Shown here piece by piece: positions 2,528 to 55,475 of a DNA stretch of 64,000 nucleotides. The DNA comes from a virus: IMG/VR virus record IMGVR_UViG_3300036806_000217, positions 1 to 64,000 of that record. One strand, 5' to 3'. The position numbers and the translations under genes are program-made. The notes beneath the pieces were generated by a model that saw nothing but the letters and a program-made list of their open reading frames with translations, was not told where the DNA came from and made no database searches. Within the stretch, counting starts at the first letter, position 1. The number at the start of each line of letters is the position of its first letter.

Positions 2528-3070
2528 TCACGCACCCGGGCGGCACCGCATCTGGTGCAGCATCAGCAACCCCGCCACAGCGTTCGCCGACCGCACCGAG
2601 CCCTTCGCGACCAGCTCCGGCACCAGCGACAGCGGCACCCACTCCCGCCGCTCCGACTCGAAGTCGTCCTCCGGATGCCCCACATACTCCGCCGACTCCG
2701 ACCAGTACACGTGATGCAGAGCATCCGACAGGCCGTTCGACGGCTCCACCGTCAACAGGTGCTTCAGCGGGCCGGGCCGCCAGCCGGTCTCCTCCAGCAT
2801 CTCCCGCGCCGCCGCGGCCTCCAGCGACTCGCCGTCCTCGACGACACCGGCAGCGAGCTCCCAGCCCCAGGTGTCGGTGATGAACCGGTGCCGCCACAGC
2901 AGCAGCACCTCGTTGTCGTCGTTCACCGCGGTACACAGGGCCACGGGCCTCAGCCGCATCAGGTAGTGGTCCAGGTGGCGGCCGTCGGGCAGCTCGACGT
3001 CGGCGAGGTTGATCCGCAGCCACGGATTCGAGTAGACCTCGTGCTCGCCGAGGTTCTTCCATACCGACAT
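2528..3070 (-). CDS. NUDIX hydrolase (ADP-ribose pyrophosphatase-like)
   Basis: Nudix box GVVEDGESLEAAAAREMLEETG. Confidence 0.92.
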   Translation of the reverse strand: MSVWKNLGEHEVYSNPWLRINLADVELPDGRHLDHYLMRLRPVALCTAVNDDNEVLLLWRHRFITDTWGWELAAGVVEDGESLEAAAAREMLEETGWRPGPLKHLLTVEPSNGLSDALHHVYWSESAEYVGHPEDDFESERREWVPLSLVPELVAKGSVRSANAVAGLLMLHQMRCRPGA

Positions 3071-3129
3071 TGCGCGCCCCATCTGTCGCCCCTGACTGGT
3101 GGGGTGACGCTATCGCAGCCGGCCCGCGA

Positions 3130-15842: not shown

Positions 15843-15985
15843 TCGCCGCTCTCCGCGCCTTCCTGCGCCCCACTCCCCCGCCTCCGCCGCAGCAGCCTTC
15901 GCCCCGCGGCCTGGTGCAGGCGCAGTGGCGGCGGCCGACCCACTCCCCGCCAGCCCGTACCGACCGCCTTGGAGGCGCGTCATGA
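15839..15985 (+). CDS. Small hypothetical protein
   Basis: ATGA overlaps at both ends. Confidence 0.5.
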   Translation: MIAALRAFLRPTPPPPPQQPSPRGLVQAQWRRPTHSPPARTDRLGGAS

Positions 15986-16794
15986 CCACTCTCCGGAGCT
16001 TCTCCTTTGGCGGCGGCGTCCAGTCAACTGCGGCTCTCGTCCTGGCCGCCCAGGGCCGCATCGACTTCCGCACGTTCCTGTTCTCCAACGTCGGCGACGA
16101 CTCGGAGGACCCGAAGACCCTGGTGTACGTCGAGGAGTACGCCCGCCCATTCGCTGCCGAGCACGGCATCGAGCTGACGACGCTTCACCGGATCATGCAG
16201 CGCACCGGGGAGAGCCGGACGCTGTTCGAGGATCTGACGCGCGACGGCTCGAAGTCGCTGAAGATCCCGGTGCGGATGTCGAACGGGGCCCCAGGCACGC
16301 GCTCCTGCACCGCCGACTACAAGATCGGCGTGATCGGCCGGGAGCTGAAGCGGCGCGGCGCGACGGCCCTGCATCCGGCGACGGTCGGGATCGGCATCAG
16401 TGTCGACGAGATCCACCGGGCCAACAACCGGCACTGCGAGCCGCACGAGCGCATCGAGTACCCGCTGCTGGACCTGGGGCTACGCCGCACGGACTGCATG
16501 CGCGTGATCCGCGACGCCGGGCTGCCGGTTCCGCCGAAGTCGAGCTGCTACTTCTGCCCGTTCAAGCGACCGGAGTCGTGGCACGAGCAGCGGCGATCCG
16601 AGCCGGAGCTGTTCGAGAAGGCGTGCCAGCTCGAAGAGCTGCTGAACCGCCGCCGGGACGAGCTGGGCAAGGACCACGTCTGGCTGACGCGCTTCAACAA
16701 GCCGCTGCGGGAGGCGATCCCCGACGGCGTCGACCTGCTCCCGATGTTCGACGAGTCCGACGGCAACTGCGACTCCGGCTGGTGCATGACCTGA
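15982..16794 (+). CDS. PAPS reductase-like (adenine nucleotide alpha-hydrolase) protein
   Basis: PP-loop SFGGGVQSTA, CTADYK, YPLLD, KSSCYFCPF and C-terminal CDSGWC. Confidence 0.85.
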   Translation: MTTLRSFSFGGGVQSTAALVLAAQGRIDFRTFLFSNVGDDSEDPKTLVYVEEYARPFAAEHGIELTTLHRIMQRTGESRTLFEDLTRDGSKSLKIPVRMSNGAPGTRSCTADYKIGVIGRELKRRGATALHPATVGIGISVDEIHRANNRHCEPHERIEYPLLDLGLRRTDCMRVIRDAGLPVPPKSSCYFCPFKRPESWHEQRRSEPELFEKACQLEELLNRRRDELGKDHVWLTRFNKPLREAIPDGVDLLPMFDESDGNCDSGWCMT

Positions 16795-39251: not shown

Positions 39252-39644
39252 TCAGCCCGCATCCGTGGGCCGGACAGGCGGGTCGTGCTCCGCGTCGTAT
39301 GCGCAGCCGTGGCAGAAGACCGGCACGCCGTGGTCCGGGATGCACGGCGGTCCGGCTGAGAAGAACGCGCGGTGGAGCGCCTCGGCGTTGGCGGTGATCG
39401 TCGCAAGCAGCGCCGGATCCAGCGGGCCGCGTACCGCCAGCCGCTGCTCACGCCTGGCCTTCATGCGGGCCAGCATCTGCTCCCGCGTCGGCCGCTCCCA
39501 CTGGTGCGCACCGAGGCCGTGATGACCCTCCGGATGGCCGCAGCGCCTGCACCCGAACGGCGTCGGCACCGTGCCGTGAGGCCAGCGGATCGGGCCACGG
39601 CGCAGGCCCGTTGCTAGGTCGGAGGTTACGAGGGTTGGGCGCAT
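39252..39644 (-). CDS. Hypothetical protein with CxxC...H...H domain
   Basis: PFGCRRCGHPEGHH...HQWERPTREQMLARMKARR. Confidence 0.65.
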   Translation of the reverse strand: MRPTLVTSDLATGLRRGPIRWPHGTVPTPFGCRRCGHPEGHHGLGAHQWERPTREQMLARMKARREQRLAVRGPLDPALLATITANAEALHRAFFSAGPPCIPDHGVPVFCHGCAYDAEHDPPVRPTDAG

Positions 39645-39649
39645 GCGGG

Positions 39650-39898
39650 TCAGTCCTCGTCGGGCCACGCGTCGGCCAGCCCCTGCTCGGGCGTGACCTT
39701 CCCGGTGGCGATCTCGTGGATGGCGTTCGCCGCAGCCCAGTTGTCGCCGGGCAGCGAATCACCGAGCGCGTTGGCGATCGTGGCGATGGCGGCCAGGGCT
39801 TCGGCGATCACCGCGTCGATGAGCGGGTCGAGGCCGTCGGCGGTGACGGTGCGGGTGGAGGCGGCGTAGGCGATCAGGTTCTCGCGGGCAGTGGTCAT
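39650..39898 (-). CDS. Hypothetical protein
   Basis: AAGGAG RBS. Confidence 0.65.
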   Translation of the reverse strand: MTTARENLIAYAASTRTVTADGLDPLIDAVIAEALAAIATIANALGDSLPGDNWAAANAIHEIATGKVTPEQGLADAWPDED

Positions 39899-40822: not shown

Positions 40823-42232
40823 TCAGTGGGTGGTGAGCAGGTCGTCCAGGCGCACGACGTCCGAGACGGGCGGGCCGGCGGGACCGCCGAGGGCGACCTC
40901 GACGCCGTCGCCGCGGGTGCCCCAGTTGCCGATCTTGGCGAACGTGAACAGGGCGAAGAAGTACATGGGCTTGACCACGAACATGCGCCACACCCCGGCG
41001 ATCGGGGCGCAGGCCACCAGCAGGATGTGGAACCAGACGGACTCGTCCGAGCGCTTGACCATGAAGAAGCGCAGGGAGATCATCCAGTTCACGCCCGTAC
41101 CCACCAGCAGCGTCGACACCGCCAGCGAACCGGCGTGCGCCCGCGCCGACGGCTGCATCAGCAGCGCGACCGGGATGGCCACCGACAGGATCAGCTGGAT
41201 CAGCTCCAGCAGCGGCATCCAGAACACCGGCGACTGCACCTGGGCGTAGCGGAACCACCAGAACGTGCGCACGAACGTCCCACGCATCCATCTGAGCTGC
41301 TGGCGCCTGTAGTTCGACCAGGACTCCGGCACGAGGGTGTAGGCCACGCATGTGGGCTGGTGGACCGCGTCACCGTGCAGCAGCCCGTACAGGGTCAGCA
41401 TGCTGTCGTCGTTCATCTGCATCGGCCGGCCCCAGAACGTCTCATGGGCGTACACCCCGGCGTACTGCCGGATGACCTCACCGCGGTACAGGGCGAGGGT
41501 TCCCGAGTTGACCGTGACGCGCTTCAGCACCGACTGGGCGGAGCGGAACCCGCGGGTGAACGGCGTGTACAGCATCGCGGTGAGGAACGTCAGCCAGTTG
41601 CTCTTGGTGTTGAGCACCGCCACCAGGCCGGCGACGGAGGTGACCTTCGGGTCGGCGAACGGCTTCAGGCCCTCGGCGACCGCGGCGGCGTCCAGGATGC
41701 TGTCCGAGTCCAGGGTGACGATGATGTCGGAGTCGTCGTCGGCGAGGGCTTCCATCTGGGCGTGGCGCTTGCCCTGGTTCTCGGTGCGCTGCCACGTCGC
41801 GTCGATGCCCACCGCGGCGGCTGCGGCCACGAACCAGTCCCGGACGTGGGCCTGAGGGTCGGCGGAGCCGTCGTCGACGCACCGCACCCGGTCCGGCAGG
41901 CGGGTCTGGTCGAGGACGGACTGCAGGCAGGCCCGGAGCGCGGCCTCGTCCTCGTTGTAGATCGGGATCTGCACGACCACGACCAGGTCGTCCAGCTGCC
42001 GCTGCTGACGGTTGGTGACCTTGCGGGGCTTCTCGAACCACGACAGGGGCACCCACCACAGCAGCAGGAACGAGAACGCCCACGCGAGGGCGAGCCGGTT
42101 GCCGTGGCCGGCGAACGCCGCAGTGACCGTGACGGCGTGCCACACGGCCCAGGCGGTGAACCCGGCTATCGGGAGGGTGGCGAGCAGGACGGTGCGTCTG
42201 CGGTTGGCGTAGGTCGCCACCGGGGCGCGCAT
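40823..42232 (-). CDS. Processive GT2 glycosyltransferase, NodC/hyaluronan-synthase-like
   Basis: 2 N-terminal TMs; IPIYNED, VDDGS, NQGKRHAQ, TLDSDS, SGTLALYR, NDDSMLT, QQLRW; C-terminal TMs. Confidence 0.92.
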   Translation of the reverse strand: MRAPVATYANRRRTVLLATLPIAGFTAWAVWHAVTVTAAFAGHGNRLALAWAFSFLLLWWVPLSWFEKPRKVTNRQQRQLDDLVVVVQIPIYNEDEAALRACLQSVLDQTRLPDRVRCVDDGSADPQAHVRDWFVAAAAAVGIDATWQRTENQGKRHAQMEALADDDSDIIVTLDSDSILDAAAVAEGLKPFADPKVTSVAGLVAVLNTKSNWLTFLTAMLYTPFTRGFRSAQSVLKRVTVNSGTLALYRGEVIRQYAGVYAHETFWGRPMQMNDDSMLTLYGLLHGDAVHQPTCVAYTLVPESWSNYRRQQLRWMRGTFVRTFWWFRYAQVQSPVFWMPLLELIQLILSVAIPVALLMQPSARAHAGSLAVSTLLVGTGVNWMISLRFFMVKRSDESVWFHILLVACAPIAGVWRMFVVKPMYFFALFTFAKIGNWGTRGDGVEVALGGPAGPPVSDVVRLDDLLTTH

Positions 42233-42396
42233 CAGTGGTCCTGCGGGGTGCGTCCGCGGCGGAACCGGGCCCGGATGACGAGCGCGCCGACGCCGACGAT
42301 GGTGACGATTCCGGCGACGAGCCAGATCTGGCCGAACGCGATCCCGGCGAGGGAGAGCGTCGCGCCGGTGCCAGCGAGAGATCCATACGAGTGCAC
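42232..42396 (-). CDS. 54-aa peptide consisting of an LAXTG motif + TM + basic tail
   Basis: AAGGA RBS; MHSYGSLAGTG-hydrophobic-RARFRRGR; stop overlaps the GT2 ATG (TGATG). Confidence 0.75.
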   Translation of the reverse strand: MHSYGSLAGTGATLSLAGIAFGQIWLVAGIVTIVGVGALVIRARFRRGRTPQDH

Positions 42397-42489
42397 GAGG
42401 GTTCCTTGATCGGGTAGGTGAGTTGATGGTGCGGTACGTGCGGTGGCCCGATCCTTCCGCATGATCGCGATCGGGCCACGCGGGGCAGG

Positions 42490-43014: not shown

Positions 43015-43212
43015 TCAGGCGGTGGTGCGGGCGCGCTGCTCCGCGAGTTGAGCGAGCAGTCCCGGCGACGGGATCAGCTCCGAGTACCAGCAGCGCGGGC
43101 CGGTGCACGTGTACCAGACGCCGCAGAACGCATGCTCCGGCGTCCCCGGCGGCTTCGGGGACATCGGGCCGTGCTGCGGGCAGGACGGGCGCACGGCCAG
43201 CTCGGTGCTCAC
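43015..43212 (-). CDS. Small Cys/His protein
   Basis: CPQHGPM...CGVWYTC...C. Confidence 0.65.
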   Translation of the reverse strand: MSTELAVRPSCPQHGPMSPKPPGTPEHAFCGVWYTCTGPRCWYSELIPSPGLLAQLAEQRARTTA

Positions 43213-43922
43213 CACGCCACCCCTTCCGGCTCGACCTTCACCGCAGCGTCGTCGCGGGCGGCCCATCGGGCGGTGTCGGGCCAGCGGTCGCGCCACTTCG
43301 GCGGCACGGTCTTGGCCTCCCACAGGTTGGTGGTGGTCACCGTCCGGCCGTCGAGGAACTCGATGTCGAAGCGCCGGCCGCAGAACCCACGGAACCCGCT
43401 GCCACTCCGACCGTGCTCGGGGCCGATCTTGTAGACGGTGTGGTCGATGACGACCAACTCGTCCGGGCCGTCCATGGTGAAGCTGCCGCCCGGACCCCAC
43501 ACCCCGTCGAAGCTGTCCTCGGTGCGCTGCACGTCGACGGCGATCACGCCCGCCTGGAATGTCGCGGCGATGGCGTACTCGGTCGTCGTGCCGTCCTGGT
43601 TCCACAGGCCGTAGGTGCACGAGGCACTGGCGCCGTCGTCGGTGGGCGCGTAGTCGACGGCGGACCGAACGTTGCCCCGGTGGCCCTTGCCGAGGTCGTC
43701 GTGGATGACCTGCTGCATGCGCGCCCAGAGCCGGTCCTCGATGCGCTTGACCGCGGCCTGCTGGCGCACTGCGCGGCGGGCGAGCATCCGTTCCTTGATC
43801 TGCTCCTGGGTGGGCTCGGCGTGTGGATGCCACTTGGCCTCGGCGCTCCAGCGGCGGAAGTGCTCGCGCTTCGGCACACCGCAGTGACGGCACGCCGACG
43901 GCTCCGGGGTTCGGGTGGTCAT
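43209..43922 (-). CDS. Multidomain hypothetical protein
   Basis: AAGGAG RBS; N-terminal CRHC domain; C-terminal GF.GRRF.I.F.DGR.VTT.NLW motif. Confidence 0.75.
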   Translation of the reverse strand: MTTRTPEPSACRHCGVPKREHFRRWSAEAKWHPHAEPTQEQIKERMLARRAVRQQAAVKRIEDRLWARMQQVIHDDLGKGHRGNVRSAVDYAPTDDGASASCTYGLWNQDGTTTEYAIAATFQAGVIAVDVQRTEDSFDGVWGPGGSFTMDGPDELVVIDHTVYKIGPEHGRSGSGFRGFCGRRFDIEFLDGRTVTTTNLWEAKTVPPKWRDRWPDTARWAARDDAAVKVEPEGVAW

Positions 43923-43964: not shown

Positions 43965-44678
43965 CTAGGCGGCATCGTGCTCGAAGGGCGGTGGTTCGCC
44001 CATCACGTCGAGCAGCCGCTCGGGAAGCGAATTGGGGCCAAGCAGCGGGTTGACGCAGGCCACGTTGCCGTCCAGCCAGTTGAACGGCACCGCGCCGCCG
44101 ACCTCCAGCCACAGGGCGGTGTGCGACAGGTCGATAGCGACCGGGTCGATGTCCATGCCGTACACGCACTCGAACGTCACCATCGGCAGGACCAGCGCGA
44201 CCAACTCCGGCGGCGTGCTGCCGTCGACAGTCAGCCGCGACACATACGCCTCGGCGATCATGCGGGAGGCCTCGATCAGGAACACCCCGGCGCCACACGC
44301 CGGATCGACCGCCCGGATCCTCAGGATCTGCTCCGGATCGTCCGCCTTGAGCAACTGCTCGGTCTCGCGGATCTCGCGGAGGATCTGCTTGACGCGGGCC
44401 TTGAGCGCCTTCGCTTCGGGCTTGCGGGAGAGGAAGATCAGCTCCCAGATGCCGTCCTCGTAGATGACGTTGAGTTCCTGCAGGCCGCCGGGGGTACCCA
44501 CAATCTGGGTACCCTTCTCGTCCTCGCCGAGCAGGCGCGTCGCCTTCTCGGCGTCCCGGTGGCCCATGGCCTTCGCGAAGTCCGTGGCGGCCACCCACGG
44601 CGTTCCGTCCTCGGCCAGACCGAAGCGCATGCTCTCGCCGCCGAGGTCGAACGGCATGATTTCGCGCGGGTCGTTCAC
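43965..44678 (-). CDS. BRO-N antirepressor domain fused to a truncated N6-methyltransferase SAM-binding segment
   Basis: BRO-N: DGTPWVAATD...DEKG.....TPGG.Q....I.E.G.WELIF.SRKPEAK. MTase: VDPACGAGVFL, VYGMDIDPVAIDL..TALWL; no NPPY-type motif. Confidence 0.82.
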   Translation of the reverse strand: MNDPREIMPFDLGGESMRFGLAEDGTPWVAATDFAKAMGHRDAEKATRLLGEDEKGTQIVGTPGGLQELNVIYEDGIWELIFLSRKPEAKALKARVKQILREIRETEQLLKADDPEQILRIRAVDPACGAGVFLIEASRMIAEAYVSRLTVDGSTPPELVALVLPMVTFECVYGMDIDPVAIDLSHTALWLEVGGAVPFNWLDGNVACVNPLLGPNSLPERLLDVMGEPPPFEHDAA

Positions 44679-45070: not shown

Positions 45071-45125
45071 TTCCCATCGACCGACCAACCGCCGATACGC
45101 TGCCAACATGGGGAGCCCAGCAAGC

Positions 45126-51846: not shown

Positions 51847-53325
51847 GTGGCGGACACTCAGGCGCCGCCCGCGCCCGCACCGCAGACCGTGTACGTTCCC
51901 GTGCCCCAGCCGCCAGCCGTAACGGCGGGCTGGGCGGTTCCGGCTGGGCAGGCCCCGGCGAAGGAGCCGTCCGAGCGGAAGGGTCGCGGCCGCGGGATCC
52001 CGGCAGCGCCGGCATTGGCGGCCGCGGGCAACGCGACGGCGCTCGGCGTCACCTCGGCCTACGCCGCGGGCGGCTGGCCCGGCATGGCCGCAGCGGGCGG
52101 CGCTGCCGTGCTCGCCGCGGGCGGGGCGGTGGTGCACCGGCGCCGAGCGGTGAAGCGCAGCGCGGACATTCGCAAGGCACTGCGGGCCGCGGGCCTCGGC
52201 GGCGGCTCGCTCGGTTCCGGTGGCGGCCGCGGATTCGGCCTCGGTGGCGGGTCGTCTTCGCGCCGTGGCGGGTTGTTCGGTGGCGGGTCGGGTGGCGGCC
52301 GGAAGTCGGCGGCCGCGGGCTCGTCTCGTGGCGCCTCGGGTTCGCGTTCTGGTGGCGGGTCGACGGCTCCGTCCCGTGGCGGCCGCGCGGGTGGGTCGAA
52401 CTCGCCGCGTGCCGGCAAGTCCGGGGCGGGCGCCAGCACCGGTTCGTCCGGTCGCCTGGGTCGGGCCCTGGACCGGATGCTCGGCGGCAGTGGCCAGAAG
52501 GCCGGCGTCGACAAGGCGGCCCGGAAGTCCGCGAGCGAGACCGCTGCGGCGGCGAAGAGCGTCAAGGCGGCGCGGAAGGCGGCGAAGGCCGCGGCGAAGC
52601 AGGCCCGCAAGGATCTCGGCCTGCCGTCCCGCAGCAGCCGGCTCGCCGCGGCGTCCAAGCGCGGCGCCGGCCGTGCCTGGTCCAAGACGGCCAGTCCGCG
52701 GGCGGCTGCCCGTCGCCTCGCCGCCCGGAGCGTGCGGAAGGCCCGCGGCCTCACCGCCGACGGGCTTCGCTCGCTGCGCGCCGGGGTGTGGGGCCTGCTC
52801 AAGCACATGTCCTGGAAGAAGGGCGGCAAGCGGGCCCTGGCCGCGTGGAAGGCGCACCGCGCCAAGCGCAAGACCACCACGCCCGCCGCGCCGCCCACCC
52901 CGCCGATCGCGTCCACCGTCCGCCGACCCGCCAGTACGACCCCCATCCGATCCTCTGGAGGACCCGGCATGTCCGGCTACCACTTCGTCGCACCCGCCAC
53001 GGAAGGCGTCCGCGCCGCCGCGAACTACAACCCCACCGGCATGCTGCAGGTCATCGAGGACTTCGCCGGGCTCTCCGAAGCCCTGGAGCTCCACGCCCAG
53101 GCCATGCGCGTGACCGTCGAGAACGCCGACGCGAAGTTCCCGCTGGCCCCGCAGGTCATCGACGTCATGCGGCAGGTCCACAACCTGCAGCTGAAGGCCG
53201 CCGAGCTCGCCAAGGAGCTCCAGCCCGCATCCCGCAAGCTCCACGAGGCCGACCTCGCCCGCCACTCCAGCCCCCGCAAGGGCCCGCAGGGCGAGCGCAT
53301 GTGGGACATCGCCTCCAACAGCTAG
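51847..53325 (+). CDS. TraA-like transfer-associated protein (TM, Gly/Ser and basic regions, helical C-domain)
   Basis: AAGGAG RBS; position immediately upstream of the FtsK-like gene; C-domain ends ERMWDI. Confidence 0.65.
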   Translation: MADTQAPPAPAPQTVYVPVPQPPAVTAGWAVPAGQAPAKEPSERKGRGRGIPAAPALAAAGNATALGVTSAYAAGGWPGMAAAGGAAVLAAGGAVVHRRRAVKRSADIRKALRAAGLGGGSLGSGGGRGFGLGGGSSSRRGGLFGGGSGGGRKSAAAGSSRGASGSRSGGGSTAPSRGGRAGGSNSPRAGKSGAGASTGSSGRLGRALDRMLGGSGQKAGVDKAARKSASETAAAAKSVKAARKAAKAAAKQARKDLGLPSRSSRLAAASKRGAGRAWSKTASPRAAARRLAARSVRKARGLTADGLRSLRAGVWGLLKHMSWKKGGKRALAAWKAHRAKRKTTTPAAPPTPPIASTVRRPASTTPIRSSGGPGMSGYHFVAPATEGVRAAANYNPTGMLQVIEDFAGLSEALELHAQAMRVTVENADAKFPLAPQVIDVMRQVHNLQLKAAELAKELQPASRKLHEADLARHSSPRKGPQGERMWDIASNS

Positions 53326-53354
53326 TCCGCCGTCGCGCGGAGAAAGGCACGATC

Positions 53355-55475
53355 GTGGATCTCGACTGGGACGCCAAGCACGGAGCCGTCACCGGCTCCC
53401 TCAACACAGCCGGTGCCGCACTGGCCTTGGCGTCGATCGAACACGTCGCCCACCTGCCGCTGTGGTCCGCCACCGCGGTAGCCGGCGCCGGACTGGTGGG
53501 CACCCACCTGGCCGGGGTCCGCAAGAAGGTCACCGGTGCGACCCTCGCGCTGCGCGCGGCGTCCTGGATGGCCGTTGGCGGCTGGTGCTCCTGGGCCGCG
53601 GTCGAAGGTCCGTGGACGCGTGACGTCCTCGTGGCCCTCGCCGCCGGCGCCGTCGGACTGGGCGGCGCCATGGCCGGTGCGCACCACGTCGAGGAGAAGA
53701 AGGCGGAGGAGCAGGCCAAGGCCGAGGCCGCAGCGAACCTCGCCAGTCTGGACGGCAAGCGGCGGAAGGTCGCCGAGGAGTGGCAGGAGCGCATCGCGAA
53801 GGTGTGCACCGGTTCCACCGTCCAGATCACCGGCGTGGAGGAGTGGCCGTCCGGCGGCGGCTTCACCCTGGATGGCAACTGCCTGCACGGCACCAAGTGG
53901 CGCGACCTCAAGACCCACGAGGACGCGCTGGCCGCCGAGGCCCAGCTCCCGGAGGGCTGCGGCGTCGAGGTCAAGAAGGGCGCTCACCGCGGCGCTGTCC
54001 TCATGGACGTGGCCACCGTCAACGCCCTCATCGACGACTGCCCCTATCCGTCGGACTACTCGCCGCTGTCCATCAACGACCCGGTGTCTCAGGGCGTGTT
54101 CCGCGACGGCTCCAAGGCCGAGGTCCTCCTCCGCGAACTTACCGGCCTGATCGCGGCCCGCCGCGGCGCCGGCAAGACCAACCTGATGAACGTGGGCATC
54201 GCCAACGGCGTGCGGATGGTCGACAACCTGGACTGGGTCATCGACCTCAACGGCGGCGGCCTGGCCCTGCCGTGGCTGCACGCCTGGGAGGCGGCGGGCC
54301 GTCCGGGTCGGCCGCCGATCGACTGGGTTGCCGACACCCCGGCGAAGGCCCTGGCCATGGCGCAGGCCGCACTGCGGATCGCGAAGGCCCGCAAGCCCGG
54401 CTACAAGAAGCGGGAGATCGCGGCGAACGACGACAAGCTGCCCGTCGGCTCGGACGTCCCGGCGGTGACGATCAGGTGCGACGAGATCGCGGAGATCTTC
54501 TCGCCGCGCGCCCGCAAGAACGAGGTACTGAAGAGGACCGGGGACATCCTCATCCAGATCGTCGAGATCGCCCGCGCTGTCGCCATCAACGAGATCCTGG
54601 CGGCGCTGCGCGTCACCCAGGACGTGCTCGCCGAGCCGCAGGTCCTCAAGCAGTCCGGCCTGAAGATCGGCATGCAGTCCGACGAGGCCGAACTCGCCTA
54701 CCTCTGCGGCTGGGGCGACAAGGTCTCCCCGGAGGACATCCCCTATCCGGGCTGCGGCGTCATGAAGATCGGCGAGGAGCCCGCACGCCCGTTCAAGGCG
54801 TACCGGCTCAAGCCCGCACAGATCGCCGACATCGTCGTCGCTACCAGCGGCCTGCGCCCCGAGCTCGACGAACTGTCCCGCCGCGCAGCCGGCCCGGCCT
54901 ACGAAACCCGGTGGGACGGCATGGACCACATATTCGGCATCGGCGACCTGCCCGAACGCGCAGGCGATGAGGACGGCGACGAAGACGGGGACGGCGAGGG
55001 CACCGAGGACTTCGCTGCGCCCCGCGGCTCCGGCGTCACCGCGAACTGGGGCACCGAGCCGCCGCGCGTCGACACCCAGGCCGCCCTCGACCAGGCCGAC
55101 GCCGCCCGCGACGCCATCCGCAAGGCAGCCGACGAGGCAACCAGCCGCGACGACGACCTCGACGCACAGTTCCAGGCCGTCCTCGAAAGCGGCGGCGCCC
55201 TGTGGAAGCCGCCAGCCGACGTGCCGACCCGCACGGGCCAGCCCATGCCCACCCCGGGCATCAGTGACGACGCCCGCTGGGCCGCCGTGTTCTCCATCGT
55301 CGCGAAGGCCGGTCCGGCCGGGATCAGCCCCACGGCGATCCGCGAGTTCTTCACCCAGATCAGCCCCGGCCTCGAGGCACCGCACCGGGCGACGATCACG
55401 ACATGGGTCCAGGCCGAGCCGCAGATTCACCAGCCCGTCAAGGGCAAGTACGCCCTGCGCCCCGAGGAGAAGTGA
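53355..55475 (+). CDS. traB: TraB-like FtsK/SpoIIIE-family DNA translocase
   Basis: N-terminal TMs, Walker A ARRGAGKT, IDLNGG, Walker B IRCDE, acidic linker, C-terminal winged-helix-like segment. Confidence 0.8.
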   Translation: MDLDWDAKHGAVTGSLNTAGAALALASIEHVAHLPLWSATAVAGAGLVGTHLAGVRKKVTGATLALRAASWMAVGGWCSWAAVEGPWTRDVLVALAAGAVGLGGAMAGAHHVEEKKAEEQAKAEAAANLASLDGKRRKVAEEWQERIAKVCTGSTVQITGVEEWPSGGGFTLDGNCLHGTKWRDLKTHEDALAAEAQLPEGCGVEVKKGAHRGAVLMDVATVNALIDDCPYPSDYSPLSINDPVSQGVFRDGSKAEVLLRELTGLIAARRGAGKTNLMNVGIANGVRMVDNLDWVIDLNGGGLALPWLHAWEAAGRPGRPPIDWVADTPAKALAMAQAALRIAKARKPGYKKREIAANDDKLPVGSDVPAVTIRCDEIAEIFSPRARKNEVLKRTGDILIQIVEIARAVAINEILAALRVTQDVLAEPQVLKQSGLKIGMQSDEAELAYLCGWGDKVSPEDIPYPGCGVMKIGEEPARPFKAYRLKPAQIADIVVATSGLRPELDELSRRAAGPAYETRWDGMDHIFGIGDLPERAGDEDGDEDGDGEGTEDFAAPRGSGVTANWGTEPPRVDTQAALDQADAARDAIRKAADEATSRDDDLDAQFQAVLESGGALWKPPADVPTRTGQPMPTPGISDDARWAAVFSIVAKAGPAGISPTAIREFFTQISPGLEAPHRATITTWVQAEPQIHQPVKGKYALRPEEK

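Follow-up and report, generated by a model that had tools for sequence, protein, structure and literature searches.

Attachment of synthase-made polymers (hyaluronan, chitin-like chains, poly-N-acetylglucosamine) to the wall of Gram-positive bacteria is poorly understood. In the IcaA-IcaD and PgaC-PgaD systems a processive glycosyltransferase of family 2 (GT2) needs a small membrane protein for full activity, and the genes of the two proteins are coupled. We know of no hyaluronan synthase (HAS) with a sorting-signal micro-protein as partner, and none was found in literature searches. This article describes a candidate for such a partnership, a two-gene cassette located in a stretch of 64,000 nucleotides (nt) of viral DNA (positions 1 to 64,000 of the virus record IMGVR_UViG_3300036806_000217; referred to as the window), in which the gene of a 54-amino acid (aa) micro-protein precedes that of a membrane GT2 predicted to be HAS-like. 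In comparison with IcaD and PgaD, the partner gene of the cassette is upstream of the GT2, and its product has one membrane helix instead of two, carries an L[AP]xTG motif and shows no sequence relation to them; the deacetylase and export genes of the Ica/Pga systems are also missing from the cassette.

Virus-borne processive GT2s are likewise found in chloroviruses, in which the has/chs genes are expressed early and fibers coat the infected cell and inhibit the attachment of other viruses; a "pilot protein" question was raised for chlorovirus hyaluronan (PMC5408694, in part). These viruses differ in that they infect a eukaryotic host with no sortase and bring their own sugar-nucleotide genes, and the consulted portion of that source mentions no small gene as a partner. 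Regarding wall anchoring, LAXTG is the motif recognized by class E sortases of soil actinobacteria, the sorting signal being composed of the motif, a hydrophobic segment and a basic tail, and the substrates of these enzymes (chaplins ChpA-C) share the three elements with the micro-protein (PMC5148588, in part). An actinobacterial precedent for a glycan-protein-sortase link exists in Actinomyces oris, where LcpA attaches glycan to the LAXTG-type sortase substrate GspA (PMC6381275, in part), although the cassette has no LCP gene. Chaplins and GspA are full-size secreted proteins with signal peptides, whereas the members of the peptide family consist of 6-13 residues plus the signal.

The chance is about even, in our estimation, that the cassette is a self-contained, horizontally mobile actinomycete surface-glycan module in which the peptide is the dedicated, sortase-addressed membrane partner of the synthase. 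An obligate and co-evolving partnership between a HAS-like synthase and a bare sorting signal, occurring in at least three GT2 lineages and carried by phages, would be a candidate for a connection between glycan export that depends on a synthase and anchoring to the wall by a sortase, and may reveal the way in which certain bacteria attach a sugar polymer to their wall. It would also provide a prokaryotic parallel to the surface coats of chlorovirus has/chs.

Conservation of the micro-protein and its pairing with the GT2

Homologues of the GT2 were gathered from 80 genome loci and three viral contigs (83 loci), and a small, homologous open reading frame (ORF) immediately precedes the GT2 in 82 of them (79 at first pass, with L024, L028 and L057 added by inspection); peptide counts given out of 83 refer to these 82 loci and the window. 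The sole locus without an intact peptide (L010) is on a contig that begins 297 nt before GT2 residue 49. Recurrence at this frequency is beyond chance. The peptides are 51-54 aa long in the 79 aligned loci, and clustering of all flanking ORFs gave no further conserved neighbor of the pair. Pairwise distances between peptides and between GT2s co-vary (r 0.77, with none of 999 Mantel permutations as high; 79 rows, leaving out L010, L043, L074, L076 and L077, which have a short GT2 translation or a missing peptide). Judged by these comparisons, the peptide is a conserved partner of the GT2 and the pair is a co-evolving unit.

The layout of the micro-protein comprises six residues, LAGTG, about 30 uncharged residues (12-41) which include G22-Q-I-W25, and the basic tail (RARFRRGRTPQDH). 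The preliminary description of this DNA, made from the sequence alone, had characterized the peptide as a near-bare sorting signal whose stop overlaps the ATG of a complete GT2 bearing DDGS, DSD, NDDS and QQLRW, and all of these features are in place (Table 1). G+C content at third codon positions (GC3) is 0.87 across the 54 peptide codons and 0.96 in the GT2, and since it falls to 0.50 in the 22 in-frame codons just upstream, the 54-aa start is favored. In 79 of 79 aligned loci the start codon (ATG or GTG) occupies the identical alignment column, mostly with a GGAGG/AGGAG-like site before it, and the ratio of nonsynonymous to synonymous changes (pN/pS) is 0.23 when pooled over 17 close peptide pairs and 0.22 for the window versus the viral contig L081. 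A chance ORF was ruled out by GC3, the shared start column and pN/pS. The shared start, the ribosome-binding sites, the pN/pS values and the co-variation with the GT2 thus indicate that the ORF is a real, presumably translated gene under purifying selection and that the two genes are transmitted together. The residues G11, W25, R42, F45 and R46 are invariant in the family alignment (79 loci), and M-x-Y-G is conserved at the N-terminus.

The LAxTG motif is present in 72 of the 83 peptides, while in 2000 shuffles of the N-terminal tails it arose in 0.99 of 83 on average and never in more than 5. Co-occurrence of peptide and GT2 with LAXTG conserved was the check proposed in the preliminary description, and both parts of it are borne out by the counts above. 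The position of the motif differs by clade: 15 peptides, including the window clade and the other viral-contig copies, have it at site 1 (LAGTG in the window), 56 have it at site 2, seven residues further on and abutting the helix, and a single peptide has both; peptides with a relocated motif still keep the glycine of site 1, which is invariant. When 1.84 billion representative proteins of any length were searched with a profile, 130 matches were recovered, all of them of 31-125 aa and mostly of 50-60 aa; the family therefore appears to consist of stand-alone micro-proteins and not of parts of larger sorted proteins. L[AP]xTG occurs in 84 of these matches and in 154 of the 210 distinct family members. 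Among the peptides with L..TG, position P3 is occupied by A in 130, by P in 26 and by other residues in three (A/P in 156 of 159) and P2 by 15 different residues. Since P3 is practically restricted to A or P and P2 is free, the motif matches, at the sequence level, the pattern of a sortase recognition site with degeneracy of the LPXTG/LAXTG type. An association of the LPxTG or LAxTG variant with host taxonomy was considered and is unsupported, as members with LPMTG and LPFTG also come from Thermomonosporaceae.

Known sorting-signal models recognize part of the family. TIGR01167 (LPXTG_anchor) was matched by 43 of 80 peptides and NF058583 by 69 of 80 (E<=1), and one homologue (L013) reached 17.7 bits to TIGR01167, over the 15.9-bit cut-off. 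NF058583 was rejected as the family of these peptides, with scores far under its 65-bit cut-off (window peptide 11.9 bits; best of 80, E 7.4e-9); no member in 301 + 5 genomes attained the cut-off and the sister-subfamily peptides described below had no match to this model at E<=0.001. The novelty claimed for the system in the preliminary description holds in part: no paper on the peptide-GT2 pairing was found in a literature search with subscription journals outside its scope, but public annotation already names the peptides, as "hypothetical protein" or, for several members annotated by the pipeline PGAP, as "LPXTG cell wall anchor domain-containing protein", and NCBIfam includes a model of related proteins, NF058583 ("LAXTG motif-containing small protein"). 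The family as defined here comprises at least 130 clusters of 50-60-aa proteins, mostly left "hypothetical" by annotation pipelines.

The synthase, its relatives and the distribution of the pair

From sequence and structural modeling, the GT2 is predicted to be an active, membrane-integrated, HAS-like processive synthase. Pfam assigns it to GT2 families with a weak chitin-synthase match, and in sequence it comes closest, among solved proteins, to Chlorella virus HAS (CvHAS; E 5e-16, residues 164-450) and Xenopus HAS1 (XlHAS1). The AlphaFold2 (AF2) model (pLDDT 86.8, pTM 0.88) retrieved HAS chains as the best 13 Foldseek matches (TMq 0.52-0.64), headed by XlHAS1 and CvHAS; cellulose and chitin synthases rank next. 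The residues D121, D175/D177, N274-S277, Q311/R314/W315 and W437-R440 are invariant in 55 GT2 sequences. With class I HAS (CvHAS, 7SP6-7SPA; XlHAS1, 8SMM-8SMP; bacterial HasA) the enzyme shares the GT-A domain, the D, DxD, xDDx, QxxRW and WGTRG motifs and the N- and C-terminal membrane helices. Class I HAS gives its best sequence (E 5e-16) and fold (TM about 0.6) matches, yet identity is 17-20%; a tblastn match, a hasA of the pXO1 type, is 32% identical. The catalytic-base motif is GDDR in HAS versus NDDS in the window GT2, which also lacks a UDP-glucose dehydrogenase, the usual partner in hyaluronan loci, both in the cassette and in its flanks; peptide-less Streptomyces relatives with 33% identity do have one directly upstream. 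Among NCBIfam models, NodC (TIGR04242) is the best match (137.3 bits versus an equivalog cut-off of 550), and PgaC/IcaA (TIGR03937) scores 73.4 bits versus 422.3; since both scores are far below the cut-offs, membership in either family was ruled out.

Small LAxTG peptides also recur before other GT2s. An LA[RQ]TG peptide is found upstream in three of three fetched loci of a sister GT2 subfamily, to which a pair of the Streptomyces phage Kromp (MH744420) also belongs: gp78 is a 56-aa ORF with LASTG, GWWLL and an FRRGK tail, it overlaps gp79 by 4 nt, and gp79 is a GT2 44% identical to that of the window. The Kromp genes are annotated as "hypothetical protein" and "glycosyltransferase", and no study of gp78-gp79 was found in the literature; this phage is in culture (on S. 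lividans), and hosts amenable to genetics exist for experiments. In a class sample of 401 genomes a diverse peptide profile matched nine, seven of which have a GT2 immediately downstream (the two weakest do not), and four of the seven are divergent, Pfam-confirmed peptide-then-GT2 pairs (L122-L125). Further examples came independently from a search with NF058583. The loci L095 (936-1647, minus strand) and L096 (874-1662, minus strand) encode a small M-Y...LAxTG peptide, then a mini-exosortase of about 200 aa (XrtR/P/S-like) and then a GT2, and in L104 (46-3119, plus strand) a PVV-CTERM choice-of-anchor G protein is followed by the peptide and an XrtP-associated GT2. The peptides of these NF058583 and XrtP/XrtR loci are similar to that of the window in size (about 52-60 aa), organization (M-Y..., Gly-rich, LAxTG, helix, basic tail) and location directly upstream of a membrane GT2; the loci differ by the addition of an exosortase-family protein (in L104 also the PVV-CTERM protein), which the phage does not have, and the GT2s of these loci are barely related to that of the window. 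Recurrence in sister, divergent and exosortase-linked loci therefore indicates, on comparative grounds, that a bare sorting-type signal before a membrane GT2 is a repeated actinobacterial design, operating with a housekeeping sortase or a dedicated exosortase. Assignment of the window cassette to the exosortase-associated GT2 systems (XrtP/XrtR/XrtG type) was rejected: the 87-kb phage genome has no match to TIGR04178, and its GT2 scores 41.6 bits to TIGR03111 (cut-off 364) and has no match to NF053846 (XrtP-associated GT2). As a separate observation, an ice-binding-like protein is encoded upstream in L095.

A third tier of GT2 loci has no upstream peptide (five of five examined). In four of these (L112-L115) the ORF just upstream of the GT2 has the same C-terminal sequence, and the L112 copy is a UDP-glucose/GDP-mannose dehydrogenase according to Pfam. 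The L112 GT2 (1200-2690; dehydrogenase 1-1191) is 33% identical to the window GT2 and scores 172 bits to NodC, and with the HasB/HasA-like pair of L112-L115 Streptomyces may possess a genuine locus of the hyaluronan type.

The preliminary description had proposed a phage system. As judged from genomic distribution, the pair is instead a sporadic, two-gene chromosomal module of actinomycetes which is not specific to phages; it occurs in Streptomyces, Nocardiopsis, Actinomadura, Nonomuraea and others. Among 151 Streptomyces species genomes, the main GT2 family was found in three (700-784 bits), the sister subfamily at three places (about 404-423 bits) and the third tier at six (247-272 bits). 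A Streptomyces plasmid also carries the gene of a 53-aa "hypothetical protein" and the GT2. In a quick maximum-likelihood tree, a large clade tracks family taxonomy (Nocardiopsidaceae, Nonomuraea, Actinomadura, Streptomycetaceae), and the window clusters with the viral contig L081 (93% identical), a soil metagenome-assembled genome and the viral contig L083. A second basal clade holds the viral contig L082 and two Streptomyces loci, both with phage families in their flanks. The stop and start codons overlap in the basal copies L002, L003, L018, L081 and L082, the peptide frame ending on the first base of the GT2 match, and all basal copies except L001 have the motif at site 1. Judged by the tree placement and these phage flanks, the module is therefore host-derived and has been captured by phages more than once.

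Two further observations concern these loci. At a distance of 1-2 kb downstream from the cassette, both a prophage-like locus of Streptomyces (L002:6931-7281) and the related viral contig (L081:6289-6765) have an ORF matching phrog_1238 (phosphoheptose isomerase, moron category), which may be a second surface-sugar function accompanying the cassette. One Streptomyces main-family GT2 (G427:C1:722765-724078) is interrupted by an in-frame TGA and is a possible pseudogene; a sister-subfamily copy occurs in that genome as well.

Possible roles of the micro-protein

If the peptide is a sortase-addressed partner of the synthase, the temperate phage would carry the glycan module as cargo and the GT2 would polymerize a UDP-sugar, extruding the chain via its own membrane channel. 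Since the cassette brings no sugar-nucleotide gene, the sugar is probably UDP-N-acetylglucosamine, alone or with a second housekeeping sugar. The micro-protein would be a single-pass protein with a short uncharged N-terminal tail outside, one helix and the +4 R..FRRG tail inside, and would dock on the synthase by means of the helix and the FRRG tail. The exposed L-A-x-T-G would be read by the housekeeping class E sortase of the host, which would cleave the T-G bond and transfer the N-terminal stub, plus anything joined to it, to a peptidoglycan precursor. The net effect would be a wall-tied glycan coat that alters the surface of the infected or lysogenic cell. N-out insertion, docking through helix and tail and presentation of LAxTG to the host sortase are steps on which we would place equal weight for and against. 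The identity of the product and the benefit to the phage are extrapolations; the analogy with chlorovirus has/chs suggests for the phage a surface coat altering adsorption or cell contact. Masking of receptors and altered hyphal contact, as proposed in the preliminary description, would be candidate effects.

Within the reading of the peptide as a sortase-addressed partner, the version that we prefer, tentatively and well short of an even chance, is that of a covalent adaptor or "pilot", in which the N-terminal stub (M-x-Y-G-S...) would serve as primer of the chain or as the site of its ligation, the glycopeptide then being transpeptidated to peptidoglycan by the sortase. It echoes GspA of A. 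oris and the "pilot protein" question of chloroviruses. If true, the peptide would give rise to a minimal bacterial "proteoglycan", the first sortase-anchored polysaccharide, the mini-exosortase variants would do likewise with a dedicated exosortase, and the phage would lay down a wall-bound coat blocking further adsorption.

Several observations weigh against a sortase-addressed partner. The peptide has the pentapeptide and the hydrophobic stretch with a basic C-terminal cluster of a sorting signal; however, it has no signal peptide and no displayed passenger domain, only six residues precede the motif (6-13 across the family), and N-out insertion is an assumption. The window peptide gave no match to TIGR01167 (E<=10) and its score to NF058583 is low, as mentioned. 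LAxTG is absent from 11 of the 83 peptides (eight of Nonomuraea, L070, L001, which has LATAG, and L072, which has IAATG), and the two Nonomuraea genomes checked encode 5-6 sortases; some lineages can therefore do without the motif while keeping the remaining peptide. The R..FRRG tail is far more conserved than generic sorting signals need, which points, from sequence conservation, to a protein-contact role apart from sorting. In the AF2 monomer, which for a membrane peptide carries little weight, there are helices at residues 4-22 and 24-46 with a break at residue 23, and LAGTG is placed inside the first helix; if this were part of a membrane hairpin, the motif would be concealed from the sortase. 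Finally, within the immunity region of the phage the cassette is located on the side of cro and the antirepressor, so that it may be expressed in the lytic or in the lysogenic state.

Alternatively, the peptide may be only a structural or regulatory subunit which, like IcaD for IcaA and PgaD for PgaC, completes or gates the channel, the LAxTG run being a Gly/Ala/Thr packing surface that is never processed by a sortase. This is the main rival, and we consider it possible at a probability clearly under one half. The strongest conservation is that of G22, W25, R42, F45 and R46 and not of the entire pentapeptide, the Nonomuraea clade retains the peptide without LAxTG, residues 4-22 are modeled as helical, and two of 80 peptides have a weak match to BcsF. 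Short bacterial HAS end soon after WGTR, as the GT2 does (the alignment ends at residue 450 of 469), so that an extra helix could serve. A packing motif, however, leaves unexplained that P3 is A or P with P2 free, that the motif arose anew at another position and that the identical pentapeptide occurs in peptides ahead of unrelated GT2 subfamilies. The motif count and the P3/P2 pattern apply equally to sortase cleavage as a switch, in which the N-terminal tail would plug or inhibit the synthase until removed, or the remaining membrane fragment would be the active cofactor, so that synthesis is tied to active wall-assembly sites. The conserved M-x-Y-G and a cargo of 6-13 residues, very small for a displayed protein, fit such a switch as well; but it adds a regulatory step with no known synthase precedent and requires another release mechanism for the motif-less Nonomuraea peptides, and we regard it as quite unlikely.

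A product that leaves the cell, either short chito-oligosaccharides like those of NodC or another released compound instead of a wall-bound polymer, seems unlikely too. NodC is the best NCBIfam match and no export, deacetylase or sugar-nucleotide gene is nearby; on the other hand, the score is far under the NodC cut-off, sequence and fold are nearer to channel-forming HAS, including the common WGTRG, and a partner with a sorting signal would be hard to explain if the oligosaccharide were released. The preliminary description had listed primer, anchor, accessory subunit and sortase decoy as roles of the peptide, and since the motif has the pattern of a sortase site and the peptide co-occurs with the GT2, this list is retained, with the decoy as the least likely member. 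A decoy would compete for the sortase and block anchoring of host surface proteins (e.g., chaplins), the GT2 being functionally independent of it. The sorting-signal-like architecture would suit this role, and Streptomyces aerial development needs sortase (PMC5148588, in part); but the peptide almost never occurs apart from the GT2 (82 of 83 loci; seven of nine matches in the 401-genome sample), the two co-vary, and most copies are chromosomal and track family-level taxonomy, which makes the decoy very improbable.

The carrier phage and the place of the cassette

The virus record to which the window belongs has a length of 87,340 bp and direct terminal repeats, and its completeness is rated as 100%. 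The phage encodes a serine integrase, repressors, a RecE-like exonuclease, RuvC, a single-stranded DNA-binding protein (SSB), primase/helicase, a sigma factor, a DNA methyltransferase and an FtsK-like protein, and the terminase, portal, protease, major capsid, tail and tape-measure genes are located in the final 23 kb of the record. Since integrase, repressor, replication, packaging, head and tail genes are combined on one complete record, the carrier is, by gene content, a temperate tailed phage of soil actinomycetes. The cassette is included in the only long leftward gene block of the phage (about 38.3-44.9 kb); the first genes of this block encode a helix-turn-helix protein of the Cro/CI type and a Bro-N antirepressor, and a repressor-like gene at 45108 is oriented divergently to it. 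As noted in the preliminary description, no sugar-nucleotide, deacetylase or export genes are adjacent: no Pfam or PHROG match to such families was obtained for the flanking ORFs at 38.3-44.9 kb. The phage genome encodes no sortase, and the five host-type genomes checked all have sortases (1-8 each). Megablast of the cassette region gave no match among cultured phages, PHROGs gave none for the peptide or the GT2, and a scan for a dedicated promoter or terminator of the cassette gave nothing convincing. The positions of the cassette and its elements are collected in Table 1.

Table 1. Positions in the window of the cassette, the elements of its two genes and an adjacent repeat.
Feature	Position	Strand	Remarks
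Two-gene cassette	40823-42396	minus	54-aa micro-protein gene and GT2 gene
Inverted repeat, perfect, 11 bp	42443..42479		GTGGCCCGATC / GATCGGGCCAC; 15-nt loop; between the stop of the upstream ORF and the peptide ribosome-binding site
AAGGAA	42402..42407	minus	Shine-Dalgarno-like site, 5 nt ahead of GTG
Micro-protein gene	42232..42396	minus	54 codons; GTG start; stop 42232-42234
LAGTG pentapeptide	42364..42378	minus	residues 7-11; ancestral "site 1" of the family
GQIW hinge	42322..42333	minus	opens the membrane helix; G22 nearly invariant, W25 invariant
Hydrophobic stretch, putatively membrane-spanning	42274..42321	minus	about residues 26-41; AF2 helix 24-46
RARFRRGR basic tail	42250..42273	minus	residues 42-49; R42, F45 and R46 invariant; net charge +4
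TGATG	42230..42234	minus	peptide stop overlapping GT2 start by one base
Membrane GT2, predicted HAS-like processive synthase	40823..42232	minus	469 aa; Pfam GT2 families, CvHAS match, AF2/Foldseek
DDGS	41864..41875	minus	residues 120-123; UDP-binding Asp; D121 and G122 invariant
DSD	41702..41710	minus	residues 175-177; DxD metal site; D175 and D177 invariant
NDDS	41402..41413	minus	residues 274-277; catalytic-base motif, aligned to HAS GDDR; invariant in the family
QQLRW	41288..41302	minus	residues 311-315; QxxRW of processive GT2
WGTRG	40910..40924	minus	residues 437-441; aligned to CvHAS WGTRG; WGTR invariant

The inverted repeat ahead of the micro-protein gene has an ordinary folding energy (z 0.08) and no T-tract after it; it could be an operator or a terminator devoid of T-tract. 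The cassette is flanked by two ORFs of a domain of unknown function, both matching phrog_20506 (43209-43922 and 39252-39668, minus strand; E 3e-12 and 2e-10). Within the same region, the ORF at 43965-44678 (minus strand) fuses a Bro-N antirepressor domain (residues 23-99) to a short fragment (116-191) resembling an MmeI-type DNA methyltransferase. Elsewhere in the window, an 876-aa FtsK/SpoIIIE-like protein (phrog_31069; 52845-55472, plus strand) is of the type that serves conjugative DNA transfer in Streptomyces, and its presence in one genome with terminase, portal and capsid genes suggests that the element may be a hybrid of a phage and a conjugative element. Further auxiliary genes of the phage encode a PAPS-reductase-like protein (phrog_424; 15925-16791, plus strand) and a Nudix hydrolase (2531-3082, minus strand).

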